DNA of 64,000 bases from Escherichia coli. Its GTDB lineage: Bacteria > Pseudomonadota > Gammaproteobacteria > Enterobacterales > Enterobacteriaceae. The notes under the pieces are model-generated. The model was not told the DNA's origin. It did no database searches and worked only from the letters and a program-made list of their open reading frames with translations. This document shows positions 23,308-58,050 of the stretch, piece after piece (the stretch's first letter is position 1; the number at the start of each line of letters is the position of its first letter). Made by a program: the position numbers and the translations under genes. The stretch lies in the NCBI RefSeq assembly GCF_011045215.1, contig NZ_CP049201.1; one strand, 5' to 3'.

Positions 23308-23396
23308 TGTCTGTCGCATCCCGCTCTGCGGAGCGGGTTTTTTTGACAAAATTTGAAAGTTGGAAAATTTTTCCAATTAATAGAGGTAGGAATAAA

Positions 23397-25178
23397 ATGG
23401 CAAAAATGAGAGCCGTTGACGCGGCAATGTATGTGCTGGAGAAAGAAGGTATCACCACCGCCTTCGGTGTTCCGGGAGCTGCAATCAATCCGTTCTACTC
23501 AGCGATGCGTAAGCACGGCGGTATTCGTCACATTCTGGCGCGTCATGTGGAAGGTGCTTCGCACATGGCGGAAGGTTATACCCGCGCAACGGCAGGGAAT
23601 ATCGGCGTATGTCTGGGGACTTCCGGTCCTGCGGGCACGGACATGATCACCGCGCTCTATTCTGCTTCTGCTGATTCCATTCCTATTCTGTGCATTACCG
23701 GCCAGGCTCCGCGCGCCCGTCTGCATAAAGAAGATTTTCAGGCCGTAGATATTGAAGCAATTGCTAAACCGGTCAGCAAAATGGCGGTTACAGTACGTGA
23801 AGCGGCGCTGGTGCCTCGCGTGCTGCAACAGGCATTTCACCTGATGCGTTCTGGTCGTCCGGGTCCGGTACTGGTGGATTTACCGTTCGACGTTCAGGTT
23901 GCGGAAATCGAGTTTGATCCTGACATGTACGAACCGCTGCCGGTCTACAAACCTGCTGCCAGCCGTACGCAGATCGAAAAAGCTGTAGAAATGTTAATCC
24001 AGGCCGAACGTCCGGTGATTGTTGCCGGGGGCGGGGTAATCAATGCTGACGCAGCTGCACTGTTACAACAGTTTGCTGAACTGACCAGCGTTCCGGTGAT
24101 CCCAACGCTGATGGGCTGGGGCTGTATCCCGGACGATCATGAACTGATGGCCGGGATGGTGGGTCTGCAAACCGCGCATCGTTACGGTAACGCAACGTTG
24201 CTGGCGTCCGACATGGTGTTTGGTATCGGCAACCGTTTTGCTAACCGTCATACCGGTTCGGTAGAGAAATACACCGAAGGGCGCAAAATCGTTCATATCG
24301 ATATTGAGCCGACGCAAATTGGCCGCGTGCTGTGTCCGGATCTCGGCATTGTCTCTGATGCTAAAGCGGCGCTGACACTGCTGGTTGAAGTGGCGCAGGA
24401 GATGCAAAAAGCGGGTCGTCTGCCGTGTCGTAAAGAATGGGTCGCCGACTGCCAGCAGCGCAAACGCACTTTGCTGCGCAAAACCCACTTCGACAACGTG
24501 CCGGTGAAACCGCAGCGCGTGTATGAAGAGATGAACAAAGCCTTTGGTCGCGATGTTTGTTATGTCACCACCATCGGTCTGTCACAAATCGCTGCGGCAC
24601 AAATGCTGCATGTCTTTAAAGACCGCCACTGGATCAACTGTGGTCAGGCTGGTCCGTTAGGCTGGACGATTCCGGCTGCGCTGGGGGTTTGTGCCGCTGA
24701 TCCGAAACGCAATGTGGTGGCGATTTCTGGCGACTTTGACTTCCAGTTCCTGATTGAAGAGTTAGCCGTTGGCGCGCAGTTCAACATTCCGTACATCCAT
24801 GTGCTGGTGAATAACGCCTATCTCGGCCTGATTCGTCAGTCACAACGTGCCTTTGACATGGACTACTGCGTGCAACTCGCTTTCGAGAATATCAACTCCA
24901 GCGAAGTGAACGGTTACGGCGTCGACCACGTAAAAGTAGCGGAAGGTTTAGGTTGTAAAGCTATTCGGGTCTTCAAACCGGAAGATATTGCACCAGCCTT
25001 TGAACAGGCGAAAGCCTTAATGGCGCAATATCGGGTACCGGTAGTCGTGGAAGTTATTCTCGAGCGTGTGACCAATATTTCGATGGGCAGCGAACTGGAT
25101 AACGTCATGGAATTTGAAGATATCGCCGATAACGCAGCGGACGCACCGACTGAAACCTGCTTCATGCACTATGAATAA
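23397..25178 (+). CDS. gcl: Glyoxylate carboligase (TPP-dependent)
   Basis: Start at [19 protein letters not shown] with SD GAGGTAGG upstream (the ORF track extends further 5'); 593 aa. Confidence 0.93.
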
Positions 25179-25190
25179 GGGAGATAAATA

Positions 25191-25967
25191 ATGTTACGTT
25201 TCTCTGCTAATTTATCGATGTTATTTGGAGAATATGATTTTCTCGCCCGTTTTGAGAAAGCTGCGCAGTGTGGTTTTCGCGGCGTTGAATTTATGTTTCC
25301 TTATGACTACGACATTGAAGAATTAAAACAGGTGCTGGCGAGTAATAAACTCGAACATACGCTGCACAATTTACCGGCGGGTGACTGGGCGGCGGGGGAG
25401 CGCGGTATTGCCTGTATTCCTGGCCGTGAAGAAGAGTTTCGGGATGGCGTAGCAGCAGCGATTCGTTATGCCCGTGCGCTGGGTAATAAAAAAATTAACT
25501 GTCTGGTCGGTAAAACGCCGGCTGGTTTCAGCAGTGAACAGATTCACGCAACGCTTGTAGAAAACCTGCGTTATGCCGCGAATATGCTGATGAAAGAAGA
25601 TATTTTATTACTGATTGAACCTATTAACCATTTTGATATTCCTGGTTTCCATCTCACCGGAACTCGGCAGGCGCTGAAATTGATTGATGATGTTGGTTGC
25701 TGCAATTTGAAAATTCAGTATGACATTTATCACATGCAGCGGATGGAAGGTGAATTAACCAACACCATGACTCAGTGGGCCGATAAAATTGGTCACCTGC
25801 AAATTGCTGATAATCCGCATCGCGGCGAACCGGGGACCGGAGAAATTAATTATGATTATCTCTTTAAGGTAATCGAAAATTCTGACTACAACGGTTGGGT
25901 TGGGTGTGAATATAAACCCCAAACCACCACGGAAGCCGGTTTACGCTGGATGGATCCGTACCGTTAA
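25191..25967 (+). CDS. hyi: Hydroxypyruvate isomerase
   Basis: 258 aa, TIM-barrel sugar-phosphate isomerase-like. Confidence 0.92.
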   Translation: MLRFSANLSMLFGEYDFLARFEKAAQCGFRGVEFMFPYDYDIEELKQVLASNKLEHTLHNLPAGDWAAGERGIACIPGREEEFRDGVAAAIRYARALGNKKINCLVGKTPAGFSSEQIHATLVENLRYAANMLMKEDILLLIEPINHFDIPGFHLTGTRQALKLIDDVGCCNLKIQYDIYHMQRMEGELTNTMTQWADKIGHLQIADNPHRGEPGTGEINYDYLFKVIENSDYNGWVGCEYKPQTTTEAGLRWMDPYR

Positions 25968-26066
25968 AACGTAACGCTGTTCAGGCAATGCTTTTTTAGG
26001 CCGCTAAGTTGGCAGGGGATCGTGTTGTCTGAATTCAGGAAAAGCGAAATTTAAAAGAGGTTAATT

Positions 26067-26945
26067 ATGAAACTGGGATTTATTGGCTTAGGCATTATGG
26101 GTACACCGATGGCCATTAATCTGGCGCGTGCCGGTCATCAACTGCATGTCACAACCATTGGTCCGGTTGCTGATGAATTACTGTCACTGGGTGCCGTTAG
26201 TGTTGAAACTGCGCGCCAGGTAACGGAAGCATCGGACATCATTTTTATTATGGTGCCGGATACACCACAGGTTGAAGAAGTTCTGTTCGGTGAAAATGGT
26301 TGTACCAAAGCCTCGCTGAAGGGCAAAACCATTGTTGATATGAGCTCCATTTCCCCGATTGAAACTAAACGTTTCGCTCGTCAGGTGAATGAACTGGGCG
26401 GCGATTATCTCGATGCGCCAGTCTCCGGCGGTGAAATCGGCGCGCGTGAAGGGACGTTGTCGATTATGGTTGGCGGCGACGAAGCGGTATTTGAACGTGT
26501 TAAACCGCTGTTTGAATTGCTCGGTAAAAATATCACCCTTGTGGGCGGTAACGGCGACGGTCAAACCTGCAAAGTGGCAAATCAGATTATCGTAGCGCTC
26601 AATATTGAAGCGGTCTCTGAAGCTCTGCTGTTTGCTTCAAAAGCCGGTGCAGACCCGGTACGTGTGCGCCAGGCGCTGATGGGCGGCTTTGCTTCCTCAC
26701 GTATTCTGGAAGTTCACGGTGAGCGCATGATTAAACGCACCTTTAATCCAGGTTTCAAAATTGCGCTGCACCAGAAAGATCTCAACCTGGCACTGCAAAG
26801 TGCGAAGACACTGGCGCTGAATCTGCCAAACACCGCGACCTGCCAGGAGTTATTTAATACCTGTGCGGCAAACGGTGGCAGCCAGTTGGATCACTCTGCG
26901 TTAGTGCAGGCGCTGGAATTAATGGCGAATCATAAACTGGCCTGA
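26067..26945 (+). CDS. glxR: Tartronate semialdehyde reductase (2-hydroxy-3-oxopropionate reductase)
   Basis: 292 aa; NAD-binding GLGIMG motif. Confidence 0.92.
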   Translation: MKLGFIGLGIMGTPMAINLARAGHQLHVTTIGPVADELLSLGAVSVETARQVTEASDIIFIMVPDTPQVEEVLFGENGCTKASLKGKTIVDMSSISPIETKRFARQVNELGGDYLDAPVSGGEIGAREGTLSIMVGGDEAVFERVKPLFELLGKNITLVGGNGDGQTCKVANQIIVALNIEAVSEALLFASKAGADPVRVRQALMGGFASSRILEVHGERMIKRTFNPGFKIALHQKDLNLALQSAKTLALNLPNTATCQELFNTCAANGGSQLDHSALVQALELMANHKLA

Positions 26946-27113
26946 TACCCGCAATAAAAATGGCCGATATCAGAATATGAATCGGCCAGCAATATTAAAA
27001 AAGAAAGCAGCCAAAGATGTTGCTTCAGTATTAAAAATAATATTTTTATTTTATTTGTTCCTCATAGCTAGATTAAAACAACGTTATTCGATACGTGAAA
27101 TTAAGAGGGATTT

Positions 27114-28568
27114 ATGGAACATCAGAGAAAACTATTCCAGCAACGCGGCTATAGCGAAGATCTATTGCCGAAAACGCAAAGCCAGCGGACCTGGAAAACA
27201 TTTAACTATTTTACCTTATGGATGGGTTCGGTTCATAACGTTCCCAATTATGTGATGGTCGGCGGCTTTTTTATTCTCGGCTTGTCTACCTTTAGTATTA
27301 TGTTGGCAATTATCCTCAGCGCCTTTTTCATTGCCGCGGTAATGGTATTAAACGGTGCTGCGGGCAGTAAATACGGCGTACCGTTTGCCATGATCCTGCG
27401 TGCTTCTTACGGCGTACGTGGCGCACTGTTTCCCGGATTATTAAGAGGCGGTATTGCTGCCATTATGTGGTTTGGCCTGCAATGTTATGCGGGGTCACTG
27501 GCCTGCTTGATTCTGATTGGCAAAATCTGGCCGGGATTTTTGACTCTCGGTGGTGATTTCACTCTGTTAGGCCTTTCTCTACCGGGCTTAATTACTTTCT
27601 TACTCTTCTGGCTGGTCAACGTTGGTATAGGTTTTGGCGGTGGCAAAGTTTTAAATAAATTCACTGCCATTCTTAACCCGTGCATCTATATCGTTTTCGG
27701 CGGTATGGCGATTTGGGCGATTTCGCTGGTCGGGCTCGGTCCAATCTTTGACTACATTCCGAGCGGTATTCAGAAAGCAGAAAACAGTGGATTCTTGTTC
27801 CTGGTGGTGATTAACGCGGTAGTTGCGGTCTGGGCGGCACCGGCGGTGAGCGCATCCGACTTTACGCAAAACGCCCACTCGTTTCGTGAGCAAGCGCTGG
27901 GGCAAACGCTGGGTTTAGTTGTGGCCTATATTCTGTTTGCGGTCGCCGGGGTATGTATTATTGCCGGAGCCAGTATTCACTACGGCGCTGACACCTGGAA
28001 CGTGCTGGATATTGTTCAGCGTTGGGACAGCTTGTTCGCCTCGTTCTTTGCGGTACTGGTTATTCTGATGACGACTATCTCCACTAACGCCACCGGTAAT
28101 ATTATTCCGGCCGGTTATCAGATTGCCGCTATTGCACCGACAAAACTGACCTATAAAAACGGCGTACTGATTGCCAGTATTATCAGCCTGCTGATCTGCC
28201 CGTGGAAATTAATGGAAAATCAGGACAGTATTTATCTGTTCCTCGATATCATCGGCGGAATGCTGGGTCCGGTAATTGGTGTCATGATGGCGCATTATTT
28301 TGTGGTGATGCGTGGGCAAATTAATCTTGATGAACTGTACACCGCACCTGGCGATTATAAATATTACGATAACGGTTTTAACCTCACCGCGTTTTCAGTA
28401 ACTCTGGTGGCCGTTATTTTATCTCTTGGCGGTAAGTTTATTCCCTTTATGGAACCGTTATCGCGTGTCTCATGGTTTGTCGGCGTCATCGTCGCCTTTG
28501 CGGCCTACGCCTTATTAAAGAAACGTACAACAGCAGAAAAAACAGGAGAGCAAAAAACCATAGGTTAA
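27114..28568 (+). CDS. ybbW: Allantoin permease (NCS1 family) YbbW/AllW
   Basis: 484 aa, about 12 TM helices. Confidence 0.9.
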   Translation: MEHQRKLFQQRGYSEDLLPKTQSQRTWKTFNYFTLWMGSVHNVPNYVMVGGFFILGLSTFSIMLAIILSAFFIAAVMVLNGAAGSKYGVPFAMILRASYGVRGALFPGLLRGGIAAIMWFGLQCYAGSLACLILIGKIWPGFLTLGGDFTLLGLSLPGLITFLLFWLVNVGIGFGGGKVLNKFTAILNPCIYIVFGGMAIWAISLVGLGPIFDYIPSGIQKAENSGFLFLVVINAVVAVWAAPAVSASDFTQNAHSFREQALGQTLGLVVAYILFAVAGVCIIAGASIHYGADTWNVLDIVQRWDSLFASFFAVLVILMTTISTNATGNIIPAGYQIAAIAPTKLTYKNGVLIASIISLLICPWKLMENQDSIYLFLDIIGGMLGPVIGVMMAHYFVVMRGQINLDELYTAPGDYKYYDNGFNLTAFSVTLVAVILSLGGKFIPFMEPLSRVSWFVGVIVAFAAYALLKKRTTAEKTGEQKTIG

Positions 28569-28627
28569 TTAATCCCGATATTGAACATTAAGTTAAAAAC
28601 CAATCTGTATTTTACAAGGAGTTTGTT

Positions 28628-29989
28628 ATGTCTTTTGATTTAATCATTAAAAACGGCACCGTTATTTTAGAAAACGAAGCTCGCGTTGTAGATATCGCCG
28701 TTAAAGGCGGGAAAATTGCTGCTATCGGTCAGGATCTGGGCGATGCAAAAGAAGTTATGGATGCGTCTGGTCTGGTGGTTTCGCCGGGCATGGTTGATGC
28801 GCACACCCATATTTCTGAACCGGGTCGTAGCCACTGGGAAGGTTATGAAACCGGTACTCGCGCAGCGGCAAAAGGTGGTATCACCACCATGATCGAAATG
28901 CCGCTCAACCAGCTGCCTGCAACGGTTGACCGCGCTTCAATTGAACTGAAGTTCGATGCCGCTAAAGGCAAGCTGACTATCGATGCGGCACAACTCGGTG
29001 GCCTGGTGTCTTACAACATCGACCGTCTGCATGAGCTGGATGAAGTGGGCGTTGTCGGCTTCAAATGCTTCGTTGCGACCTGTGGCGATCGCGGTATCGA
29101 CAACGACTTCCGTGATGTAAACGACTGGCAGTTCTTCAAAGGTGCGCAGAAGCTGGGCGAACTGGGGCAGCCGGTGCTGGTGCACTGCGAAAACGCGCTG
29201 ATCTGTGACGCACTGGGCGAAGAAGCGAAACGTGAAGGTCGCGTAACTGCCCATGACTATGTGGCTTCGCGTCCGGTATTTACCGAAGTGGAAGCGATTC
29301 GCCGCGTGCTGTATCTGGCGAAAGTTGCCGGTTGCCGTCTGCACGTTTGCCATATCAGCAGCCCGGAAGGCGTTGAAGAAGTGACTCGTGCACGTCAGGA
29401 AGGTCAGGACGTTACTTGTGAATCCTGCCCGCATTACTTTGTACTGGATACCGATCAGTTCGAAGAAATCGGTACTCTGGCGAAGTGTTCACCGCCGATC
29501 CGCGATCTGGAAAACCAGAAAGGCATGTGGGAAAAACTGTTTAACGGTGAAATCGACTGCCTGGTTTCCGACCACTCACCATGCCCTCCGGAAATGAAAG
29601 CCGGCAACATCATGGAAGCATGGGGCGGTATTGCCGGTCTGCAAAACTGTATGGACGTGATGTTCGATGAAGCGGTACAGAAACGCGGAATGTCTCTGCC
29701 AATGTTCGGCAAATTAATGGCGACTAACGCAGCAGATATTTTCGGTCTGCAGCAAAAAGGCCGTATCGCCCCAGGAAAAGATGCCGACTTCGTCTTCATT
29801 CAGCCGAATAGCAGCTATGTTCTTACCAATGACGATCTGGAATATCGCCACAAAGTCAGCCCGTATGTTGGCCGTACCATTGGCGCGCGTATCACGAAAA
29901 CCATCTTACGTGGTGATGTGATTTACGACATCGAACAGGGCTTCCCTGTTGCGCCGAAAGGTCAATTTATCCTTAAACATCAGCAGTAA
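28628..29989 (+). CDS. allB: Allantoinase (cyclic amidohydrolase)
   Basis: 453 aa; metal-binding HxH motif (DAHTH). Confidence 0.93.
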
Positions 29990-30045
29990 TCTGGCCCCTG
30001 CAATGCCCGTCCTTGCGGCGGGCATTCTCCGGTTAAGGTGTGTTT

Positions 30046-31347
30046 ATGTTCAATTTTGCAGTCAGCCGCGAAAGCCTGTTATCAGGATTTCAGTGGTTTT
30101 TCTTTATTTTTTGCAACACGGTTGTGGTTCCTCCTACGCTACTTTCTGCTTTTCAGTTGCCGCAAAGTAGCCTGCTTACACTCACACAATATGCTTTTCT
30201 TGCTACCGCACTGGCCTGCTTCGCTCAGGCGTTCTGTGGCCATCGTCGCGCTATTATGGAAGGGCCGGGGGGCCTGTGGTGGGGAACCATCCTAACTATC
30301 ACCCTTGGCGAAGCATCGCGCGGGACACCGATCAACGATATCGCCACCAGCCTGGCAGTGGGGATTGCGCTCTCCGGCGTGCTGACGATGTTGATTGGTT
30401 TTAGCGGATTAGGTCATCGCCTGGCGCGGTTATTTACGCCGTCGGTGATGGTCTTGTTTATGTTGATGCTGGGCGCGCAGCTGACCACTATCTTTTTCAA
30501 AGGTATGCTCGGGCTGCCGTTTGGCATAGCCGATCCGAATTTTAAAATTCAGTTACCGCCGTTCGCGCTCTCGGTGGCGGTGATGTGCCTGGTACTGGCG
30601 ATGATTATTTTCCTGCCGCAACGTTTTGCCCGTTATGGCCTGCTGGTCGGCACCATAACCGGCTGGTTGTTGTGGTACTTTTGCTTTCCTTCTTCGCATT
30701 CGCTCTCCGGTGAGTTGCACTGGCAGTGGTTCCCGCTCGGCAGTGGCGGTGCTTTGTCTCCGGGGATTATTCTGACGGCGGTGATTACAGGTCTGGTGAA
30801 TATCAGCAATACCTACGGTGCGATTCGGGGCACTGATGTTTTTTATCCGCAGCAGGGCGCGGGGAATACGCGTTATCGTCGTAGCTTTGTGGCGACCGGA
30901 TTTATGACACTGATAACCATACCGCTGGCGGTAATTCCATTTTCACCGTTTGTTTCATCCATTGGTTTATTAACCCAGACTGGCGATTACACGCGGCGTT
31001 CGTTTATTTATGGCAGCGTTATTTGCCTGCTGGTGGCGCTGGTTCCTGCACTCACGCGACTGTTTTGCAGTATCCCTTTACCCGTGAGTAGTGCGGTCAT
31101 GCTGGTTTCTTATCTGCCTTTACTCTTTTCCGCGCTGGTGTTTAGCCAGCAAATAACGTTTACCGCTCGCAATATTTATCGACTCGCATTGCCGTTATTT
31201 GTCGGCATATTTTTAATGGCATTACCGCCTGTGTATCTGCAAGACCTTCCATTAACGCTGCGTCCTCTGCTCAGTAACGGCTTATTGGTCGGGATTTTAC
31301 TGGCTGTTCTTATGGATAACCTTATTCCGTGGGAACGCATCGAATAA
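30046..31347 (+). CDS. ybbY: Putative purine/nucleobase permease YbbY
   Basis: Start placed at ATG (MFNFAVSRE); multi-TM NCS2-like. Confidence 0.9.
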   Translation: MFNFAVSRESLLSGFQWFFFIFCNTVVVPPTLLSAFQLPQSSLLTLTQYAFLATALACFAQAFCGHRRAIMEGPGGLWWGTILTITLGEASRGTPINDIATSLAVGIALSGVLTMLIGFSGLGHRLARLFTPSVMVLFMLMLGAQLTTIFFKGMLGLPFGIADPNFKIQLPPFALSVAVMCLVLAMIIFLPQRFARYGLLVGTITGWLLWYFCFPSSHSLSGELHWQWFPLGSGGALSPGIILTAVITGLVNISNTYGAIRGTDVFYPQQGAGNTRYRRSFVATGFMTLITIPLAVIPFSPFVSSIGLLTQTGDYTRRSFIYGSVICLLVALVPALTRLFCSIPLPVSSAVMLVSYLPLLFSALVFSQQITFTARNIYRLALPLFVGIFLMALPPVYLQDLPLTLRPLLSNGLLVGILLAVLMDNLIPWERIE

Positions 31348-31368
31348 TTTGTTGAAAAAGGATTGATA

Positions 31369-32514
31369 ATGAAGATTGTCATTGCGCCAGACTCTTTTAA
31401 AGAGAGCTTAAGTGCAGAAAAATGTTGTCAGGCAATTAAAGCCGGGTTTTCGACCCTCTTTCCCGATGCGAACTATATCTGTTTGCCGATAGCGGATGGC
31501 GGCGAAGGGACGGTGGATGCGATGGTCGCCGCGACGGGCGGCAACATCGTGACGCTTGAAGTCTGCGGGCCGATGGGCGAAAAAGTGAATGCTTTTTATG
31601 GCCTTACCGGCGACGGGAAAACGGCGGTGATTGAGATGGCGGCAGCAAGTGGCCTGATGCTGGTCGCACCTGAAAAGCGTAATCCGTTGCTGGCCTCCAG
31701 TTTTGGTACGGGGGAGTTAATTCGGCATGCGCTGGATAACGACATTCGCCATATTATTCTCGGCATTGGCGGCAGTGCGACGGTCGACGGCGGTATGGGC
31801 ATGGCGCAGGCGCTCGGTGTGCGTTTCCTTGATGCCGACGGTCAGGTGCTGGTGGCTAACGGCGGCAATTTAGCGCGCGTGGCAAGCATTGAGATGGAGG
31901 AATGCGATCCGCGTCTGGCGAACTGCCATATTGAAGTAGCATGTGACGTTGATAACCCGCTGGTAGGGGCACGCGGCGCGGCGGCGGTGTTTGGCCCGCA
32001 AAAAGGGGCAACGCCGGAGATGGTCGAAGAGCTGGAACAGGGGCTGCAAAATTACGCCCGTGTTTTACAACAGCAAACTGAAATTAATGTCTGTCAGATG
32101 GCGGGCGGCGGCGCTGCGGGCGGTATGGGTATTGCGGCGGCGGTATTCCTCAATGCGGATATTAAACCGGGTATTGAGATTGTACTGCGGGCGGTCAACC
32201 TGGAGCAGGCGGTGCAGGGCGCAGCACTGGTGATCACCGGGGAAGGGCGCATCGACTCGCAAACGGCAGGCGGTAAAGCGCCGCTGGGCGTTGCGTCGGT
32301 GGCGAAGCAGTTTAATGTACCGGTGATTGGGATTGCTGGTGTATTGGGTGATGGCGTGGAAGTGGTGCACCAGTACGGCATTGACGCGGTATTCAGCATT
32401 TTGCCTCGTCTGGCACCTTTAGCCGAAGTGCTCGCCAGCGGTGAAACCAATCTCTTCAACAGCGCGCGAAATATTGCCTGCGCCATTAAAATAGGTCAGG
32501 GAATTAAAAACTGA
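31369..32514 (+). CDS. glxK: Glycerate kinase II
   Basis: Start placed at [11 protein letters not shown]; 381 aa. Confidence 0.92.
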
Positions 32515-32560
32515 CCCTTACCTTTAAAGCGGATGCGATTTATATCGCATAAGAGTGCAG

Positions 32561-32665
32561 TACTCATGCCGGATGCGGCATGAGTACCATATCCTTCCTG
32601 AAAATCGCGCAAATTCTATATATTGCAGAGATCATGTAGGCCTGATAAGCGAAGCGCATCAGGCT
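32561..32665. repeat. Palindromic hairpin plus REP unit downstream of glxK
   Basis: Near-perfect inverted repeat GTACTCATGCCGGATGCGGCATGAGTAC followed by a REP-like unit TGTAGGCCTGATAAGCGAAGCGCATCAGGC. Confidence 0.5.
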
Positions 32666-32682
32666 ATATTGCAAAAAAAGCC

Positions 32683-32709
32683 ACGGTATAAACCGTGGCA
32701 AAATCCAAC
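32683..32709 (-). terminator. Rho-independent terminator downstream of allE
   Basis: On the minus strand: GCCACGGTTTATACCGTGGC followed by TTTTTTT. Confidence 0.6.
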
Positions 32710-32741
32710 ATAGCTAAAAATAATCAGGCGAGTGGTATGAC

Positions 32742-33527
32742 TTAAATCTCTACGTCGCGGTTGCAATCTTTCGAGTAAATATAGCTGAACGCTTCACCAC
32801 GCCCTACGCCATAACCAGCCTGTAAAGAATAAGCGCCCATAAAGATGTAATCGCCTTTTTTCACCGGGATCCAGTTATTGTCGAGGTTATAAACCCCCTG
32901 ACCGGAAAGAATATAGGCACCGTGTTCCTGAACGTGTGTTTCGATATAACCATGGCTGGCACCTGGTGCAAAAGAGAGGATATGCATGTTCATATCAAAA
33001 CCTAACTCTTTGGGCAGAAAATCCAGCAGGATCACATCATCCATACCTTCATAGTGAATGCGTTCCAGTTCGCTGGCATTGCCAGAAACAAGCCACGGTG
33101 CATGGCCTTCTACCGGAACATAGCGGCGCTTATATAAAAAGATTTGGCTGTCTTCGGCCTGGGCGTTAACAAACGTCATTAAGGAGCCTGGCGGGCAATA
33201 AAGATAGCCACCTTCGCTTAAGGCAAATGTTTTGCCTTCGGCTTTGGCAGTGATATTTCCAGAGATCACATACAGGAACGTTTCAATGCCTTCGCCACCG
33301 AAGCCCTGTTGGTTGCCACCGTTTTGATGCAGTGTGACCAGATAATCAACAAAAGAGGCACCCAGCTTTGGCGTGGAGAGGATTGTCGCGTCACAATTTT
33401 CAAAGCCCGGAATAATATTTTTTACCAGACCGTCTGGTGTTAACAGTGCGAAATTACCGTGTTTCACAATCGCACGGTTAGCCAGTAAATCATCGCGGTA
33501 ACCGGTGACGTTATTTAAATATCCCAT
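32742..33527 (-). CDS. allE: (S)-ureidoglycine aminohydrolase AllE (YlbA), cupin
   Basis: 261 aa, bicupin. Confidence 0.9.
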   Translation of the reverse strand: MGYLNNVTGYRDDLLANRAIVKHGNFALLTPDGLVKNIIPGFENCDATILSTPKLGASFVDYLVTLHQNGGNQQGFGGEGIETFLYVISGNITAKAEGKTFALSEGGYLYCPPGSLMTFVNAQAEDSQIFLYKRRYVPVEGHAPWLVSGNASELERIHYEGMDDVILLDFLPKELGFDMNMHILSFAPGASHGYIETHVQEHGAYILSGQGVYNLDNNWIPVKKGDYIFMGAYSLQAGYGVGRGEAFSYIYSKDCNRDVEI

Positions 33528-33537
33528 TTATGACTCC

Positions 33538-34773
33538 TTATTTCTGCCAGGCAAGTTGATAAAGCATGAGTGCCAACGTTTTGACCCCTTTGGCAAGGTC
33601 GGTAATATTGGTGCGTTCCGCCGGGTTATGGCTGATCCCGTTGATGCTGGGAATGAAAATCATGCAGGTCGGCACGCGAGGCGCGAAAATTTGTGCGTCG
33701 TGCCCGGCACCACTGTGCATCACCCGGTAATTCAGTTTTTCGCTTTCACACAATTCTGTCAGGGTGGCGACCAGGTCCTTATTCATCGGCACCGGTTCTT
33801 CGTCCATCCATAAATCGATATCAATACCAATGTCCATTTCATCGCAAATCGCCCGCATGTCGTTTTCTAACTGTTGGGTGAAATCACGCAGCACGGCGGC
33901 GTCGGTATGACGACAATCAATGGTGAACGTGGTTTTACCCGGCACCACATTCACCGTATTCGGGCGCGGCTCTACTTTCCCAAAGGTCAGCACCAGCGGG
34001 TCGCCCATCTTTTTCGCTTTTTCGATCGCCTGATGGCAAATGCGACTGAAAGCGTAAACCGTATCACGACGATAACCCATCGGCGTGGTGCCTGCATGGT
34101 TTGATTCGCCGTTCAGCGTCACCGTATAGCGACGTTGCCCGACAATTGCATTCACCACGCCAATTGATTGCCCATTACTTTCCAGCACACAGCCCTGTTC
34201 GATATGCAGTTCGACAAAGGCTTTAATATCCTGACGCGGAGTTAGCGGGGCGTCCGGCAGAGTAAATCCGCAAGCCTTCATCGCATCGACAAAACTATTT
34301 CCTTTGGCATCACAGATATTCCGCACGTCGTCAGGATTCGCCAGCCCAAAGATATTTTTACTGCCCCAGAAAACATACGGGAAGCGGCTGCCTTCTTCTT
34401 CCGCCATCGCCACCACTTCAACCGTACGCAGCGGTGCGCCGTATTGCGTTTTCAGCCAGTCAATTGCCAGCCACGCCGCCAGCGCGCCGAATTGCCCGTC
34501 GAGGTTACCGCCGTTAACCACGGTATCGATATGCGAACCGCTCAGAACCACTTCCTGTGGATATTCGGTGCCATTCAGGCGACCGTATAAATTCCCCACT
34601 TCATCGAAACGTGTTTCCAGCCCGCTTGCTGCCATTCTTTTTTTAAATTGCTGCTGGGTTTCCAGCCATTCCGGCGAATAAAGTAAACGGGTCATCCCAC
34701 CCGTTGGGTCAGCGCCAAATGAGGAAAGCCAGGGCAGCGCTTCTTCTATGGCTTGACGAAAATGTGTAATCAT
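33538..34773 (-). CDS. allC: Allantoate amidohydrolase
   Basis: Start placed at MITHFRQAIEE (411 aa); M20 peptidase fold. Confidence 0.92.
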   Translation of the reverse strand: MITHFRQAIEEALPWLSSFGADPTGGMTRLLYSPEWLETQQQFKKRMAASGLETRFDEVGNLYGRLNGTEYPQEVVLSGSHIDTVVNGGNLDGQFGALAAWLAIDWLKTQYGAPLRTVEVVAMAEEEGSRFPYVFWGSKNIFGLANPDDVRNICDAKGNSFVDAMKACGFTLPDAPLTPRQDIKAFVELHIEQGCVLESNGQSIGVVNAIVGQRRYTVTLNGESNHAGTTPMGYRRDTVYAFSRICHQAIEKAKKMGDPLVLTFGKVEPRPNTVNVVPGKTTFTIDCRHTDAAVLRDFTQQLENDMRAICDEMDIGIDIDLWMDEEPVPMNKDLVATLTELCESEKLNYRVMHSGAGHDAQIFAPRVPTCMIFIPSINGISHNPAERTNITDLAKGVKTLALMLYQLAWQK

Positions 34774-34794
34774 AAGAAAGTCCTGTCTCAATAA

Positions 34795-35844
34795 TTATTG
34801 CGCAAAGGGATTTTTCGTTTCGTATGACGTGTTATAAAGCGCGTCGGAAATTAAATACTGGTAAATATCATCAACAATTTCGATGCCTTCGACGGCGGCT
34901 TTGCGTTGTTTAATATCCTGATCCTGTCCGGGATAATAAACCTGATTAAAACCGGGCGCGGGGGTAATGGCATTTAATTCGCGCATGGTCTGGCTAAGAT
35001 GTTGACGGAATAATTCGCTGGAGGAGAAAAAGTTCGGGTTAATAACTACATGTAATTGCCCCAAATTACGCCCGGCGTGTAAATCGTCATACATCGAACT
35101 AACCTGTCGCCCGAACGGTAAGCCGAGTAAGACGCCTGAGAGGACGTCAATCATCATCATCAGGCCATACCCTTTCGGCCCGGCTGCGGGGAGCAGAGCA
35201 TGTACCGCGAACGGATCGGTTGTTGGTGCACCGTTTTTATCGACCGCCCAGGTATCCGGGATAGACATATTACGCGAGCGGGCGTCGAGCACTTTTCCCC
35301 ATGCCTGTACGGTAGTCGCCATATCAAAGGTAAGGATCTCGTCGCCTTCTCCCGGCGCGGCAAAGGCCAGTGGGTTAGTACCGTAGTAAATTTCCGCGCC
35401 GCCAAACGGCACCACCATTGGATCGGACTGGCACATCGAAATGCCAATTAATCCGGCGCGGGCTGCCTGCTGCACAAAATAAGAGATTGCGCCGCTGTGA
35501 CCCATCCGGCTGATACCGACCACCGCAACGCCATTTTGCTGGGCGGTTTTGATGGCATGTTCCATACCCATTTTCGCCGCGACCTGTCCGGCGGCATTGT
35601 CGGCATGTAAAATTGCCGAGCACGGCCCGGTTTCCTCAAGACGAAACTCCGGTTCGCGGTTGGTGCCGCCTTTTGAAATGCGTTCCGCGTAGTATTCCAC
35701 GCGCACCGCGCCATGAGAGTGGATCCCTCTGGCATCGGCGTAAACCAATACTTCAGCCACGGTTGCAGCGTGCTCACGTTTTAACCCAGCCTGGCAGAGT
35801 TTATTCTCAATTAGCTGGTGGAGTGTTTCCCGACTGATTTTCAT
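34795..35844 (-). CDS. allD: Ureidoglycolate dehydrogenase
   Basis: 349 aa. Confidence 0.92.
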   Translation of the reverse strand: MKISRETLHQLIENKLCQAGLKREHAATVAEVLVYADARGIHSHGAVRVEYYAERISKGGTNREPEFRLEETGPCSAILHADNAAGQVAAKMGMEHAIKTAQQNGVAVVGISRMGHSGAISYFVQQAARAGLIGISMCQSDPMVVPFGGAEIYYGTNPLAFAAPGEGDEILTFDMATTVQAWGKVLDARSRNMSIPDTWAVDKNGAPTTDPFAVHALLPAAGPKGYGLMMMIDVLSGVLLGLPFGRQVSSMYDDLHAGRNLGQLHVVINPNFFSSSELFRQHLSQTMRELNAITPAPGFNQVYYPGQDQDIKQRKAAVEGIEIVDDIYQYLISDALYNTSYETKNPFAQ

Positions 35845-36160
35845 CTGTCTTCCTTTTTAACGACGGTGTGAAGCATGACTGCAATTAACATACAGGGAAA
35901 ATATCTGGATTATGTGATCCAGACAGGCAAAAAAATATAGTTAGAATTTATTTGATAATCCGCTCGCTTTTAACCTGGTTTTTAAAACAACCACGCTTAT
36001 TAAAAAATAACACGTAATAGCATGGCGGTTATTTGAATTCTTTTGTTAATAATCCCTGTGTGATATTCATCACCTTATTTACTCGTTGTCATCGATACCG
36101 TAATCGCCACATTAACACTGCTCGTGCAATTGCCATGGGTGCAATTTTTAAGGAGTTGTT

Positions 36161-37828
36161 ATGATCCACGCCTTTATTAAAAAAGGGTGTTTTCAGGATT
36201 CGGTCAGTTTAATGATTATTTCACGAAAACTCAGCGAATCAGAAAATGTTGATGATGTTTCCGTAATGATGGGTACGCCCGCCAATAAAGCGTTATTAGA
36301 TACCACAGGTTTCTGGCATGACGATTTTAATAACGCCACGCCGAACGATATTTGCGTGGCAATTCGTAGCGAAGTGGCGGATGCGGGGATCGCGCAGGCG
36401 ATTATGCAGCAGCTTGAAGAGGCGCTAAAACAACTGGCGCAGGGGTCAGGCAGCAGCCAGGCGTTGACGCAGGTGCGTCGCTGGGACAGTGCCTGTCAGA
36501 AATTACCCGATGCCAATCTGGCGCTGATTTCAGTGGCTGGCGAGTATGCGGCGGAGCTGGCGAATCAGGCGCTGGATCGCAACCTCAACGTGATGATGTT
36601 CTCCGATAACGTCACGCTGGAAGATGAAATCCAACTTAAAACCCGCGCGCGGGAAAAAGGCTTGCTGGTGATGGGGCCGGACTGCGGTACGTCGATGATT
36701 GCCGGCACGCCGCTGGCTTTTGCTAACGTGATGCCGGAAGGCAACATTGGCGTCATTGGCGCTTCCGGTACCGGGATTCAGGAGCTGTGCTCGCAGATTG
36801 CGCTGGCAGGGGAGGGAATTACTCACGCGATTGGCCTTGGCGGCCGCGACCTCAGCCGTGAAGTGGGCGGCATCAGTGCGCTAACAGCGCTGGAAATGCT
36901 CAGTGCAGACGAGAAAAGCGAAGTGCTGGCATTTGTTTCAAAACCACCTGCCGAAGCGGTGCGTCTGAAAATTGTTAATGCCATGAAAGCAACCGGCAAA
37001 CCGACGGTGGTGCTGTTTTTAGGTTATACCCCGGCGGTGGCCCGCGACGAGAATGTCTGGTTTGCCTCCTCGCTGGATGAGGCCGCACGCCTGGCTTGCC
37101 TGCTTTCACGCGTTACGGCGCGACGTAACGCGATAACGCCTGCCAGCAGCGGATTTATTTGCGGTTTGTATACCGGCGGTACGCTGGCTGCCGAAGCGGC
37201 GGGATTACTTGCCGGACACCTTGGCGTGGAAGCCGATGATGCCCATCATCACGGCATGATGCTCGACGCCGATGGTCACCAGATTATTGACCTCGGCGAT
37301 GATTTCTACACAGTCGGGCGTCCCCATCCGATGATCGACCCAACCTTACGCAACCAGTTAATTGCCGATCTCGGCGCTAAACCGCAAGTGCGTGTGCTGC
37401 TGCTTGATGTCGTGATTGGCTTCGGTGCGACCGCCGATCCTGCCGCCTCGCTGGTAAGCGCCTGGCAAAAAGCCTGTGCTGCGCGTTCAGACAATCAACC
37501 ACTGTATGCCATTGCCACGGTGACAGGCACTGAACGTGACCCGCAATGCCGCTCGCAGCAAATCGCCACGCTGGAAGATGCGGGGATTGCGGTCGTGAGT
37601 TCGCTACCGGAAGCCACCTTGCTGGCGGCAGCGTTAATTCATCCGCTCTCGCCTGCCGCACAGCAACACACACCGTCATTACTGGAAAACGTCGCCGTGA
37701 TTAACATCGGATTACGCAGTTTTGCGCTGGAGCTACAAAGCGCCAGCAAACCGGTTGTGCATTACCAATGGTCGCCAGTCGCCGGCGGCAATAAAAAACT
37801 GGCTCGTTTATTAGAACGTTTGCAATAA
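36161..37828 (+). CDS. fdrA: FdrA (CoA-ligase-like protein)
   Basis: 555 aa; first gene of the fdrA-ylbE-ylbF-ybcF cluster. Confidence 0.9.
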   Translation: MIHAFIKKGCFQDSVSLMIISRKLSESENVDDVSVMMGTPANKALLDTTGFWHDDFNNATPNDICVAIRSEVADAGIAQAIMQQLEEALKQLAQGSGSSQALTQVRRWDSACQKLPDANLALISVAGEYAAELANQALDRNLNVMMFSDNVTLEDEIQLKTRAREKGLLVMGPDCGTSMIAGTPLAFANVMPEGNIGVIGASGTGIQELCSQIALAGEGITHAIGLGGRDLSREVGGISALTALEMLSADEKSEVLAFVSKPPAEAVRLKIVNAMKATGKPTVVLFLGYTPAVARDENVWFASSLDEAARLACLLSRVTARRNAITPASSGFICGLYTGGTLAAEAAGLLAGHLGVEADDAHHHGMMLDADGHQIIDLGDDFYTVGRPHPMIDPTLRNQLIADLGAKPQVRVLLLDVVIGFGATADPAASLVSAWQKACAARSDNQPLYAIATVTGTERDPQCRSQQIATLEDAGIAVVSSLPEATLLAAALIHPLSPAAQQHTPSLLENVAVINIGLRSFALELQSASKPVVHYQWSPVAGGNKKLARLLERLQ

Positions 37829-37837
37829 GGGGTTCCC

Positions 37838-39097
37838 ATGTTTACATCAGTGGCGCAAGCCAATGCTGCGGTTATCGAACAAATTCGTCGCGCTCGTCCA
37901 CACTGGCTGGATGTGCAACCGGCTTCTTCACTTATCAGCGAACTAAACGAGGGCAAAACACTGCTTCACGCCGGGCCGCCAATGCGCTGGCAGGAGATGA
38001 CCGGACCCATGAAAGGGGCGTGCGTGGGCGCATGTCTGTTCGAAGGTTGGGCGAAAGATGAAGCGCAGGCGCTGGCAATACTGGAGCAGGGGGAAGTGAA
38101 CTTCATTCCTTGTCACCATGTGAATGCCGTCGGGCCAATGGGCGGTATTACTTCTGCCAGTATGCCGATGCTGGTGGTCGAGAACGTGACCGACGGCAAC
38201 CGGGCGTACTGCAACCTCAACGAAGGTATCGGCAAAGTGATGCGTTTTGGCGCTTACGGCGAAGATGTCCTGACTCGCCATCGCTGGATGCGCGATGTGT
38301 TAATGCCAGTATTAAGCGCGGCGCTGGGGCGCATGGAGCGCGGTATCGATCTTACCGCGATGATGGCGCAGGGCATTACCATGGGCGATGAGTTCCATCA
38401 ACGCAATATTGCTTCCTCAGCACTGTTAATGCGTGCGCTGGCCCCACAAATTGCTCGCCTCGATCATGATAAACAGCACATCGCGGAAGTGATGGATTTC
38501 CTCAGCGTGACCGATCAGTTCTTCCTCAACCTCGCGATGGCTTACTGCAAGGCGGCGATGGATGCTGGCGCGATGATCCGCGCAGGCAGCATCGTCACGG
38601 CAATGACCCGCAACGGCAATATGTTCGGGATTCGGGTAAGCGGGCTGGGCGAACGCTGGTTTACTGCGCCTGTAAACACTCCGCAAGGTCTGTTTTTCAC
38701 CGGCTTCTCGCAGGAGCAGGCGAACCCGGATATGGGCGATAGCGCGATTACCGAAACCTTTGGTATCGGAGGTGCGGCAATGATCGCAGCGCCTGGCGTA
38801 ACGCGCTTTGTCGGTGCGGGTGGCATGGAAGCGGCCAGGGCGGTATCTGAAGAGATGGCGGAAATTTACCTTGAACGCAATATGCAGTTGCAGATCCCAA
38901 GCTGGGATTTCCAGGGCGCGTGCCTGGGGCTGGATATTCGTCGCGTGGTAGAAACCGGCATTACGCCACTCATCAATACCGGTATCGCCCATAAAGAGGC
39001 GGGGATCGGGCAGATTGGCGCAGGCACTGTGCGGGCACCGCTGGCGTGTTTTGAACAGGCGCTGGAAGCACTGGCTGAAAGCATGGGGATTGGTTGA
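37838..39097 (+). CDS. ylbE: DUF1116-family protein YlbE
   Basis: 419 aa. Confidence 0.9.
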
Positions 39098-39107
39098 GGA
39101 ACGCGCA

Positions 39108-39923
39108 ATGACGATCATCCATCCTCTGCTTGCCAGTAGTAGCGCACCGAATTATCGCCAGTCCTGGCGGTTAGCGGGAGTGTGGCGGCGGGCGATTAAC
39201 CTGATGACGGAAAGCGGCGAACTGTTAACGCTGCATCGTCAGGGTAGTGGTTTCGGCCCCGGAGGATGGGTGCTTCGCCGTGCGCAATTCGATGCGTTAT
39301 GCGGTGGATTATGCGGCAATGAACGACCACAGGTTGTGGCTCAAGGGATTCGCCTCGGGCGTTTCACGGTTAAACAGCCACAGCGTTATTGTTTGCTGCG
39401 TATTACGCCGCCTGCGCATCCTCAACCACTTGCAGCTGCATGGATGCAACGCGCGGAGGAAACCGGGCTTTTCGGGCCACTGGCGTTGGCGGCAAGCGAT
39501 CCGCTGCCTGCTGAGTTACGCCAGTTTCGTCACTGTTTTCAGGCCGCGCTCAATGGCGTTAAGACCGACTGGCGGCACTGGCTGGGTAAAGGCCCCGGAT
39601 TAACGCCGAGTCATGATGACACGCTGAGCGGAATGCTGCTGGCGGCCTGGTATTATGGCGCTTTAGATGCGCGCTCCGGTCGTCCGTTTTTTGCCTGTTC
39701 CGACAATCTGCAACTCGTTACCACAGCGGTGAGCGTCAGTTATTTACGTTATGCCGCGCAAGGATATTTCGCCTCGCCACTCCTGCACTTTGTTCATGCT
39801 CTGAGTTGCCCGAAACGTACCGCTGTTGCGATTGATTCGCTGCTGGCGCTGGGGCATACGTCAGGGGCAGATACGCTGCTGGGGTTTTGGCTTGGCCAAC
39901 AATTATTACAAGGAAAACCATGA
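39108..39923 (+). CDS. ylbF: YlbF (DUF2877-family)
   Basis: Start placed at [11 protein letters not shown] with SD GAGGAA upstream (271 aa). Confidence 0.9.
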
Positions 39924-40813
39924 AAACACTGGTTGTAGCTCTTGGGGGCAACGCCTTACTCCAGCGCGGTGAGGCGCTGACGGCAGAAAATCAATATCGC
40001 AATATCGCCAGTGCTGTACCCGCGCTGGCGCGCCTGGCCCGTTCTTATCGGCTGGCGATTGTTCACGGCAACGGGCCGCAGGTGGGGCTGCTGGCATTGC
40101 AGAATCTGGCGTGGAAAGAGGTAGAACCGTATCCGCTGGATGTGCTGGTGGCAGAAAGTCAGGGGATGATTGGCTATATGCTGGCGCAGAGTTTGAGCGC
40201 ACAGCCGCAGATGCCGCCCGTGACGACGGTGCTGACGCGCATTGAGGTTTCGCCTGATGATCCGGCGTTTTTGCAGCCAGAGAAATTTATTGGTCCGGTT
40301 TATCAGCCAGAAGAACAAGAGGCACTGGAAGCGGCTTACGGCTGGCAGATGAAACGTGATGGTAAATATTTGCGCCGGGTGGTGGCGTCTCCGCAACCGC
40401 GTAAAATTCTCGACAGCGAAGCCATCGAGTTGTTGCTCAAAGAGGGGCATGTGGTGATTTGCAGTGGCGGCGGCGGTGTGCCTGTGACGGAAGATGGGGC
40501 AGGGAGTGAAGCGGTGATTGATAAAGATCTCGCTGCTGCGTTGCTCGCTGAGCAGATTAACGCCGATGGGCTGGTGATCCTCACTGATGCTGATGCGGTA
40601 TATGAAAACTGGGGAACGCCGCAGCAACGCGCCATTCGCCATGCCACACCGGATGAGTTAGCGCCATTTGCCAAAGCCGATGGTTCGATGGGGCCGAAGG
40701 TAACGGCGGTGAGTGGTTATGTCAGAAGCCGTGGTAAACCCGCGTGGATTGGGGCGTTATCGCGAATTGAAGAGACGCTGGCGGGCGAAGCGGGGACCTG
40801 TATTTCGCTGTAG
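39920..40813 (+). CDS. ybcF: Carbamate kinase-like protein YbcF
   Basis: Start at [18 protein letters not shown] overlap with ylbF; amino-acid kinase fold. Confidence 0.9.
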
Positions 40814-40844
40814 TGATGAGAGCATCCAGCAATCGGTGCACCAT

Positions 40845-40934
40845 GCCTGATGCGACGCTTGACGCGTCTTATCAGGCCTACAATGGGTACCGGATCGGTG
40901 TAGGCCGGATAAGGCGTTCACGCCGCATCCGGCA
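40845..40934. repeat. REP elements (inverted pair)
   Basis: GCCTGATGCGACGCTTGACGCGTCTTATCAGGCCTAC and GTAGGCCGGATAAGGCGTTCACGCCGCATCCGGCA. Confidence 0.6.
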
Positions 40935-40951
40935 ATCAAATGAGCACCAGG

Positions 40952-42019
40952 TTAACTGAACTTACTCTGTGCCCACATCACGCCGCTGGCATACTCCGGC
41001 GGCAGCAGCGGGATTAAGGCTTCCAGCGTCGCGGACAGACGCGATGTGTCGCTGTCGGTCAAATTCAGATGCCCCACTTTACGGCCCGGACGGACTTCTT
41101 TGTCGTACCAGTGCAGATGCACCAGCGGCAGTTTCAGCCAGTCATAATTCACATCGCTACCAATCAGATTGATCATCACCGACGGATTATTCACCACTGG
41201 TTGCGGTAACGGCAGATCGGTAATCGCCCGCAGATGTAGCTCAAACTGGCTGATGCTGGCACCGTTTTGTGTCCAGTGACCGCTGTTATGCACACGCGGA
41301 GCCAGTTCGTTGATCAGCAGACCTTGCGGGGTGACAAAACACTCCATCGCCATCACGCCCACATAGCCCAGCTCCTGCATAATCGCCGAAAGCATCTCTT
41401 CGGCTTGCGCTTGCTGCTGTGCATTGGCCTGCGGGAAAGCGACGCTGGTGCGCAAAATACCGTCCTGATGCAGGTTATGCGTCAGCGGATAAAACACGGT
41501 GCTGCCATCAAAGCCGCGCGCGCCAACCAGCGACACTTCACCAGAGAAGTTTATGCCCTGCTCGACTATACATTCGCCGTAGCATTCAGCCGGTAACTGT
41601 TCGGTTTCATCGGCACGTAAACGCCATTGACCGCGTCCGTCATAGCCACCAGTGCGACGCTTAACAATCGCCAGCTCACCTAAACGATCAAACACCGCAG
41701 GCCACTCGCTGCGTTCGGCAAGTAACTGCCACGGTGCAGTCGGCAGGTGGAGCTTATCGAAAAGCTGCTTCTGAGTCAGACGGTCAGCAATAATCGGGAA
41801 CACATCGCGGTTCACAAAGGCCGGATGGCGCGCCAGCTCGCGGGTTAATGCGGTTTCCGGCCAGCGTTCTATCTCAGCGGTAATCACGCTTTGTTGAAAA
41901 GGCACCGCCGCCGGTTCAGCGTCCAGCCCGACTGGCCAGACAGCAATGCCTAACGGTTCGCCTGCCTGACGCAGCATACGGCCTAACTGCCCGTTACCGA
42001 GGACGCAAACCTGTTTCAT
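40952..42019 (-). CDS. purK: N5-carboxyaminoimidazole ribonucleotide synthase
   Basis: 355 aa, ATP-grasp. Confidence 0.93.
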
Positions 42020-54163: not shown

Positions 54164-54240
54164 GCGCCCTTAGCTCAGTTGGATAGAGCAACGACCTTCT
54201 AAGTCGTGGGCCGCAGGTTCGAATCCTGCAGGGCGCGCCA
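54164..54240 (+). tRNA. argU: tRNA-Arg (anticodon UCU), prophage integration target
   Basis: GCGCCCTTAGCTCAGTTGGATAGAGCAACGACCTTCTAAGTCGTGGGCCGCAGGTTCGAATCCTGCAGGGCGCGCCA; cloverleaf with anticodon loop CUUCUAA and encoded CCA. Confidence 0.93.
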
Positions 54241-54255
54241 TTACAATTCAATCAG

Positions 54256-55646: not shown

Positions 55647-58050
<2,404 letters not shown>

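Follow-up and report, generated by a model that had tools for sequence, protein, structure and literature searches.

The window analyzed here (the whole stretch of 64,000 nucleotides from one strand of Escherichia coli contig NZ_CP049201.1, RefSeq assembly GCF_011045215.1) carries allF, allG, allH, and allK (formerly fdrA, ylbE, ylbF, and ybcF) in this order and in the same direction; the four genes adjoin the divergent allDCE operon and were delimited from the list of open reading frames and a reading of the gene junctions (Table 1). Their location beside the allantoin genes, reported in a first-pass annotation of this DNA, is borne out by allD, which lies directly upstream of allF.

Table 1. 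Features of the allFGHK locus and its surroundings (positions refer to the window).
Feature	Position	Strand	Description
allS; allA, allR, gcl, hyi, glxR, allW, allB, ybbY, glxK; allE, allC, allD	20776-35844	- (allS); + (allA to glxK); - (allE to allD)	Allantoin/glyoxylate cluster feeding the operon, in window order
allD	34795-35844	-	Divergent from allF across a 316-bp intergenic region
allD-allF intergenic region	35845-36160		Divergent regulatory region, 316 bp, A+T-rich; from the sequence and alignment with MG1655
allF (fdrA)	36161-37828	+	555 aa, ATG start; largest oxamic transcarbamylase subunit
allG (ylbE)	37838-39097	+	419 aa, ATG start; oxamic transcarbamylase subunit
allH (ylbF)	39108-39923	+	271 aa, ATG start; oxamic transcarbamylase subunit
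allK (ybcF)	39920-40813	+	297 aa, ATG start; catabolic carbamate kinase
Presumed REP (BIME-type) palindromic unit 1	40845-40882		Between the convergent allK and purK
Presumed REP (BIME-type) palindromic unit 2	40900-40934		Between the convergent allK and purK
purK	40952-42019	-	Convergent on the 3' end of the operon

Gene calls, junctions and flanking sequences

In the mechanically produced list of open reading frames allH and allK were extended to upstream TTG codons (positions 39015 and 39887, respectively); the ATG starts were chosen, which agree with the RefSeq annotation and with K-12. The ATGA overlap described earlier for ylbF and ybcF was found at positions 39920–39923, where allK starts on the stop codon of allH. 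The gap of 10 bp that had been placed between fdrA and ylbE is actually 9 nt long (37829–37837), and it is the ylbE-ylbF gap that measures 10 nt (39098–39107). Each gene is preceded by a purine-rich Shine-Dalgarno-like run (AAGGAG at 36150–36155 for allF, followed by GGGG, GAGGA, and AAGGA), and the shortness of the junctions, one of them a 4-nt overlap, would permit translational coupling of the four genes.

The cluster had been described as intact, and this holds: translation and comparison with K-12 revealed no internal stops or frameshifts in the four operon genes, which encode full-length proteins with 98.6–100% identity to their K-12 counterparts. The 13 other all/gcl/glx genes of the window are likewise full length and free of internal stops; 12 of them show 97.8–100% amino acid identity to K-12, and for glxK (97.4% nucleotide identity) a frame of 381 aa was confirmed by translation. 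The gene order of the cluster and its synteny with allDCE and purK are those of K-12 and other annotated strains. The expectation that ylbE is a frameshifted pseudogene in K-12 was ruled out, as NC_000913.3 contains an intact 419-aa b4572 identical to the window protein; the old frameshift had been put down to a sequencing error by CanOE (PMC3364942). An Rfam search for structured RNAs gave no match inside the operon, and the window as a whole gave matches only to one tRNA and, between glxK and allE, to two sRNA families.

Downstream of allK, the two palindromic units listed in Table 1 are ones which we take to be REP on the basis of the E. coli REP consensus. Alignment with K-12 shows the same units at this place and one additional unit of 60 nt in K-12. 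A terminator scan found no canonical intrinsic terminator 3' of allK, and the operon transcript probably ends at the REP units.

Compared with the K-12 allFGHK genes (b0518, b4572, b0520, and b0521), the order, gene lengths, junctions, flanking genes (allD and purK) and the size of the promoter region are the same, and the differences are only allelic, namely eight substitutions in AllF, two in AllK, nine single-nucleotide differences in the promoter region and one REP unit fewer. Of 5426 complete E. coli genomes, 5423 carry the operon, and in 5407 at least 80% of its length is covered. Operon losses mediated by insertion sequences do exist and are rare. The segment 36161–40813 is thus very probably an ordinary, intact E. 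coli allFGHK operon; its function has already been published, and the earlier observation is correct with nothing new in this window.

Protein families and enzymology of the operon products

The first-pass annotation had noted that this cluster was proposed to encode an oxamate transcarbamoylase plus a carbamate kinase. The literature goes further, since both activities have been experimentally demonstrated in K-12 (PMC9843812; PMC11326118), and the gene names whose verification had been recommended are in use, allK in PMC9843812 and allFGH in PMC11326118. YbcF was purified and shown to be a catabolic carbamate kinase, its kinetics were measured and its gene was renamed allK (Kim & Kim 2022, PMC9843812); the same study showed by RT-PCR that the four genes are co-transcribed. 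The purified AllF-AllG-AllH complex is an oxamic transcarbamylase, hence the names allFGH (Kim & Kim 2024, PMC11326118). It was assayed in the synthetic direction, in which carbamoyl phosphate and oxamate yield oxalurate, with Km values of 1.3 mM for carbamoyl phosphate and a high 36.9 mM for oxamate (PMC11326118). Oxamate production from allantoin was abolished by single deletion of allF or allG and by the triple allFGH deletion, and was nearly lost upon deletion of allH (1.2 vs 17.7 mM); full complementation of the triple mutant required all three genes, and the single allG deletion could not be complemented from a plasmid (PMC11326118). The functional data on allFGHK all come from one laboratory and all concern K-12; searches of the literature and the PDB found no independent replication and no paper on the structure or mechanism of the AllFGH complex, the structures at hand being 3DMY and 3CLQ.

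The proteins encoded in the window fall into the expected families. AllK, with 99.3% amino acid identity to K-12 b0521 (two substitutions), contains an AA_kinase domain (Pfam), exceeds the cut-offs of the NCBIfam carbamate kinase equivalog NF006926 (621 bits, cut-off 416) and of TIGR00746 arcC (427 bits, cut-off 358), and matches solved carbamate kinases (PDB 8CRV, E = 1e-89, as well as 1E19, 2E9Y, and 1B7B). AllG is 100% identical to K-12 b4572, belongs to Pfam PF06545 "AllG," formerly DUF1116 (326.7 bits, cut-off 27), and has a homolog of solved structure, 3CLQ, deposited as an uncharacterized protein. AllH, also 100% identical to its K-12 counterpart (b0520), belongs to Pfam PF11392 "AllH," formerly DUF2877 (101.7 bits, cut-off 25); a sequence search of the PDB retrieved no related structure. 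AllF shows 98.6% amino acid identity to K-12 b0518, scores 1042 bits against the NCBIfam FdrA subfamily NF004760 (cut-off 433) and matches PDB 3DMY, "Protein fdrA."

In the reading preferred here, AllD oxidizes ureidoglycolate to oxalurate, which AllF-AllG-AllH phosphorolyzes to oxamate and carbamoyl phosphate; AllK then transfers the phosphate of carbamoyl phosphate to ADP, giving ATP and carbamate, and the latter decomposes to NH3 and CO2. In anaerobic allantoin catabolism, allFGHK thereby closes the "oxamate branch." On the strength of its sequence, this strain would be expected to behave like K-12 in enzymatic activity, co-transcription and regulation.

A different role has been put forward for AllF, namely that of an NDP-forming acyl-CoA synthetase, for instance an oxamate:CoA ligase serving to remove oxamate, with only AllG and/or AllH constituting the transcarbamylase (CanOE 2012). 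The domain content of AllF is in line with this idea, as it shares with succinyl-CoA synthetase alpha chains and the NDP-forming acyl-CoA synthetase superfamily the CoA_binding (PF02629, E = 6e-13) and Ligase_CoA (PF00549, E = 1e-36) domains, and its residues 87–290 align to succinyl-CoA synthetase alpha chains in the PDB (E = 5e-12 to 1e-4). Furthermore, transcarbamylase chemistry is unlike that of a CoA ligase, as CanOE argued (PMC3364942), and PGAP and most RefSeq records name the gene "acyl-CoA synthetase FdrA." Unlike members of that superfamily, however, AllF lacks an ATP-grasp partner subunit, and similarity to SucC was not detectable. When AllF and its paralog YahF were aligned to E. 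coli SucD with MAFFT, the phosphohistidine of the RMGHAGA segment stood opposite alanine in both proteins, neither of which shows a GHAGA motif, in a segment that is weakly and unreliably aligned. The biochemical and genetic data weigh against the ligase: nothing but oxamate, carbamoyl phosphate, Mg2+, and buffer was present in the assay, so that the reported AllFGH activity requires neither CoA nor nucleotide, unlike that of NDP-forming acyl-CoA synthetases; loss of allF alone suffices to abolish oxamate formation; and complementation with allGH alone brings back only about 16% of the oxamate produced (PMC11326118). Oxamate is not consumed further in the wild type, because it accumulates there as a near-stoichiometric end product (17.7 of 19.5 mM; PMC11326118). 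A CoA ligase role for AllF is therefore very improbable, and the assignment of AllF as a subunit of the oxamic transcarbamylase, along with AllG and AllH, is preferred.

The allD-allF promoter region and regulation of the operon

In K-12 the operon is activated by AllS and ArcA, and anaerobic induction depends on both, as supported by EMSA (Kim & Kim 2025, PMC12535856). The fragments bound by AllS (-203/-144) and by phosphorylated ArcA (-142/-83) in that study (PMC12535856) are equivalent to positions 35958–36017 and 36019–36078 of the window, respectively. The activator gene allS lies inside the window; ArcA is encoded outside it. The four genes would be expressed from a single mRNA starting in the A+T-rich allD-allF intergenic region, and expression would need both the LysR-type activator AllS and phosphorylated ArcA; the pathway would therefore be limited to anaerobiosis with allantoin as the nitrogen source.

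The intergenic region matches that of MG1655 at 307 of 316 positions (97%). The nine differences (35966, 35978, 35992, 36011–36013, 36022, 36026, and 36054) all lie between -195 and -107, within the two EMSA fragments, while the rest of the 316 bp, including the final 106 nt before the allF ATG, is identical to K-12. It is because these differences fall in the AllS and ArcA binding fragments that K-12-like regulation in this strain is something we infer rather than read off directly.

It could be argued from this clustering, and from the eight AllF substitutions, that this strain has the operon in a silent or differently controlled form and does not run the oxamate branch; indeed, a single change in AllF, D296Y, is known to alter flux (PMC8550087). 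D296 is unchanged here, which rules out that particular variant; AllG and AllH are those of K-12, and none of the four reading frames is disrupted. The promoter allele, in turn, matches that of O157:H7 strains at 100% identity, and 1900 of 5426 genomes carry it at 99% identity or more. In a set of nine diverse strains the variable sites are polymorphisms common to several phylogroups, and no variation was seen in the ArcA-like core block GGTTATTTGAATTCTTTTGTTAATAAT or in the 106 nt nearest the allF start codon. The idea that the cluster of differences represents an unusual regulatory variant was rejected, since the allele is common and its sites are shared polymorphisms. A silenced or rewired operon is accordingly most improbable, slightly more so than the ligase role of AllF, and an intact operon with regulation resembling that of K-12 remains the favored reading.

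A more speculative view, to which we give little credence, is that the allD-allF promoter exists in E. coli as two or more common haplotypes whose differences are confined to the AllS and ArcA fragments and which might set the expression level of the oxamate branch, or its anaerobic and allantoin thresholds, according to lineage.

Related systems and significance

The operon completes anaerobic allantoin catabolism with a further NH3 and one ATP obtained by substrate-level phosphorylation, a trait that is probably useful in the gut. An intact operon is the norm in E. coli. The importance of the operon in this window is small beyond correct annotation: the labels "acyl-CoA synthetase FdrA," "DUF1116," and "DUF2877" carried by most RefSeq records should read allF, allG, and allH. 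The window adds nothing special on the catalytic mechanism of AllFGH or on the substrate of yahEFG-yahI.

The pathway logic is that of the classical transcarbamylases (the ATCase PyrB, the OTCase ArgI/ArgF, and YgeW) when they work together with a carbamate kinase, the arginine deiminase pathway being an example: a carbamoyl (ureido) compound is phosphorolyzed to carbamoyl phosphate and carbamate kinase then yields ATP, NH3, and CO2. AllFGH differs in needing three different subunits, whereas the classical enzymes are homotrimers, and Pfam and NCBIfam searches of AllF, AllG, and AllH gave no match to the OTCace_N or OTCace domains, in agreement with PMC11326118. AllFGH acts like a catabolic transcarbamylase yet lies outside the classical aspartate/ornithine transcarbamylase family.

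The same four protein families recur in the K-12 yahE-yahF-yahG-(yahH)-yahI cluster, whose co-directional genes encode DUF2877, FdrA-like, DUF1116, and carbamate kinase-like proteins in the order H-like, F-like, G-like, kinase, at another locus and beside the amidohydrolase gene yahJ. These proteins, for which the K-12 record annotates no function, are only distant relatives of the operon products (identities of 37% for YahF-AllF, 45% for YahG-AllG, 25% for YahE-AllH, and 39% for YahI-AllK), and the genes of the window are orthologs of the all cluster, not of yah. The shared family content suggests that the yah cluster may represent a second enzyme of the AllFGH type paired with a carbamate kinase.

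The allFGHK operon and its products

Region 36161-40813 is, on sequence grounds, the known allFGHK operon itself (allF, allG, allH and allK being fdrA, ylbE, ylbF and ybcF), the gene order, full-length orthology and protein families that define it all being found here. The first-pass annotation of this cluster is confirmed apart from one small correction, and its interpretation is supported. The fdrA-ylbE gap, reported as 10 bp, is actually 9 nt (it is the ylbE-ylbF gap that measures 10 nt), and ylbF and ybcF do overlap by ATGA, at 39920-39923. Because the gaps are this short and the overlap is of 4 nt, the four genes would be translationally coupled. All four start codons are preceded by a purine-rich Shine-Dalgarno-like sequence (for allF, AAGGAG at 36150-36155).

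Coordinates of the operon genes and flanking features
Feature	Coordinates	Strand	Product	Basis or remarks
fdrA/allF	36161-37828	+	555 aa	ORF list and junction sequences
ylbE/allG	37838-39097	+	419 aa	ORF list and junction sequences
ylbF/allH	39108-39923	+	271 aa	ORF list and junction sequences
ybcF/allK	39920-40813	+	297 aa	ORF list and junction sequences
allD	34795-35844	-		Divergent from allF, across the 316-bp A+T-rich region upstream of the operon
purK	40952-42019	-		Convergent on the downstream end of the operon
Two REP/BIME palindromic units	40845-40882 and 40900-40934			In the convergent allK-purK spacer (40814-40951)

AllF carries the Pfam domains CoA_binding and Ligase_CoA, matches the FdrA subfamily of NCBIfam (1042 bits) and has its structural counterpart in PDB 3DMY ("Protein fdrA"). 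AllG and AllH match the Pfam families of the same names (PF06545, formerly DUF1116, and PF11392, formerly DUF2877), and neither is matched by a model of NCBIfam release 20. A homologue of AllG has a solved structure (3CLQ, an uncharacterized protein by its PDB title); a sequence search for a solved-structure relative of AllH found none. AllK contains the AA_kinase domain (Pfam), scores 621 bits against the NCBIfam carbamate kinase equivalog (cut-off 416) and matches solved carbamate kinases (e.g., 8CRV, E = 1e-89). AllG and AllH are the same as their MG1655 counterparts (100% identity); AllF has eight substitutions (A72V, A284V, A326T, V328A, T361A, Q363H, S372G, and L443S) and AllK two (D191E and N260K). 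RefSeq naming lags behind: among the matches listed, most records call AllF "acyl-CoA synthetase FdrA", AllG a "DUF1116 domain-containing protein" and AllH a "DUF2877 domain-containing protein"; the newest PGAP runs alone have "YlbE family protein" for AllG and "oxamate carbamoyltransferase subunit AllH family protein" for AllH.

Oxamic transcarbamylase and the allantoin pathway

The first-pass statement that this cluster had been proposed to encode an oxamate transcarbamoylase plus a carbamate kinase proved right, and the role is now experimental rather than proposed (PMC9843812; PMC11326118; PMC12535856). In 2012, CanOE was the first to suggest that the orphan oxamate carbamoyltransferase might be encoded by ylbF, ylbE and fdrA, with ybcF as carbamate kinase, and regarded the old K-12 ylbE frameshift as a probable sequencing error (PMC3364942). 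A D296Y variant subsequently tied fdrA to oxamate formation (Kim et al., 2021; PMC8550087). Using RT-PCR, Kim and Kim (2022) found the four genes to be co-transcribed; they also purified YbcF, which proved to be a catabolic carbamate kinase with Km values of 0.47 mM (carbamoyl phosphate) and 0.43 mM (ADP), and renamed ybcF as allK (PMC9843812). In the study that introduced the allFGH names, formation of oxamate from allantoin was abolished without allF or without allG and nearly abolished by deletion of allH (1.2 vs. 17.7 mM); the triple mutant made no oxamate, and its full rescue took all three genes together. Purified AllF-AllG-AllH carbamoylated oxamate, with Km values of 1.3 mM (carbamoyl phosphate) and 36.9 mM (oxamate), in a mix of oxamate, carbamoyl phosphate, Mg2+ and buffer only (Kim and Kim, 2024; PMC11326118).

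AllF resembles the alpha subunit of succinyl-CoA synthetase, and might be read as a true acyl-CoA synthetase with oxamate as its substrate. This reading is disfavoured, since the allF deletion forms no oxamate, oxamate builds up as an end product and the AllFGH assay is free of CoA. In a MAFFT alignment with SucD, the phosphohistidine position, within a weakly aligned segment, holds no histidine in AllF or its paralogue YahF. As a transcarbamylase subunit, AllF belongs to an enzyme outside the classical transcarbamylase family, and the ATCase/OTCase fold is absent by Pfam from AllF, AllG, and AllH. The pairing of a catabolic transcarbamylase with a carbamate kinase is shared with the arginine deiminase pathway. 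The closest E. coli paralogues are yahE, yahF, yahG, and yahI (25, 37, 45, and 39% identity to AllH, AllF, AllG, and AllK, respectively); the K-12 cluster yahE-yahF-yahG-yahH-yahI (NC_000913.3, 335925-341115) encodes the same four protein families, adjoins the amidohydrolase gene yahJ and the LysR regulator gene yahB, and probably specifies a second enzyme of the oxamic transcarbamylase type, acting on some ureido compound.

According to the literature, AllD produces oxalurate, which AllFGH converts with phosphate to oxamate and carbamoyl phosphate; AllK then transfers the phosphate to ADP, yielding ATP and carbamate, which breaks down to NH3 and CO2, and oxamate is excreted. The rest of the cluster is present and collinear with K-12 (allS, allA, allR, gcl, hyi, glxR, allW, allB, ybbY, glxK, allE, allC, and allD). 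All 13 genes are full length with no internal stops, 12 of them at 97.8–100% amino-acid identity to K-12; for glxK the 97.4% is a nucleotide identity only, its 381-aa frame being intact by translation. At the sequence level, this supports the expectation of a complete pathway in the strain. The convergent glxK-allE spacer contains Rfam matches to two enterobacterial sRNAs, ES036/CssrF (32601-32643; 38.1 bits, barely over the gathering score) and STnc480 (32669-32735; 85.8 bits).

Flanking sequences and natural variation

The operon is already known and ordinary, and the promoter SNPs, REP difference and loss variants described here leave this verdict unchanged. Allantoin under anaerobiosis induces it more than 38-fold, which requires AllS and ArcA, bound to fragments -203/-144 and -142/-83 from the allF ATG, respectively (Kim and Kim, 2025; PMC12535856); the ArcA gene lies outside the window. 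The 316-bp allD-allF intergenic region (35845-36160) differs from K-12 at nine positions, all between -195 and -107 (35966-36054) and thus within the fragments used in the published EMSAs of AllS and ArcA; its other positions are identical. This allele occurs at 100% identity in O157:H7 strains and at 99% or more in 1900 genomes, and when nine diverse strains are aligned, its sites prove to be shared polymorphisms, while an ArcA-like block and the 106 nt nearest the allF ATG do not vary. Since the allele is common and its sites are shared, the differences are regarded as ordinary haplotype variation, and the recurrence of the same polymorphic sites across these strains suggests that E. coli carries distinct allD-allF promoter haplotypes.

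Downstream of allK, a terminator scan detected no canonical intrinsic terminator, and the REP elements probably mark the 3' end of the operon transcript; in K-12 the spacer contains a further REP unit, of 60 nt.

The window is chromosomal DNA of E. coli, and the 4653-bp region is matched in 5423 of the 5426 complete genomes of this species (95–99.8% identity); the intergenic region finds no match in 88 of them, while the operon is missing from only three. Strain STEC2018-553 (NZ_CP075665.1, 5248-8492) is a natural loss variant in which a deletion flanked by two IS1 copies has removed mnmH, the whole stretch from allS to allD and the beginning of fdrA, so that ylbE-ylbF-ybcF lack a promoter.

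Positions 1-16200, beside qmcA, form an accessory adhesin region covered to at least 80% in just 954 of the 5426 genomes. The annotation of matching genomes places here a giant adhesin related to SiiEA/BapA, a YadA-family autotransporter and the permease/ATPase and HlyD adaptor of a type I secretion system. At the other end of the window (54164-64000), a tRNA-Arg gene (54164-54237) is directly followed by an integrase gene (54256-55419, minus strand) and prophage-like genes, and the prophage carries an IS21/IS100-like istA-istB pair (56181-57982). This segment is covered to at least 80% in just 52 of the 5426 genomes, and PapM-32-1, the closest strain for the operon, has envY-ybcH-nfrA in its place.
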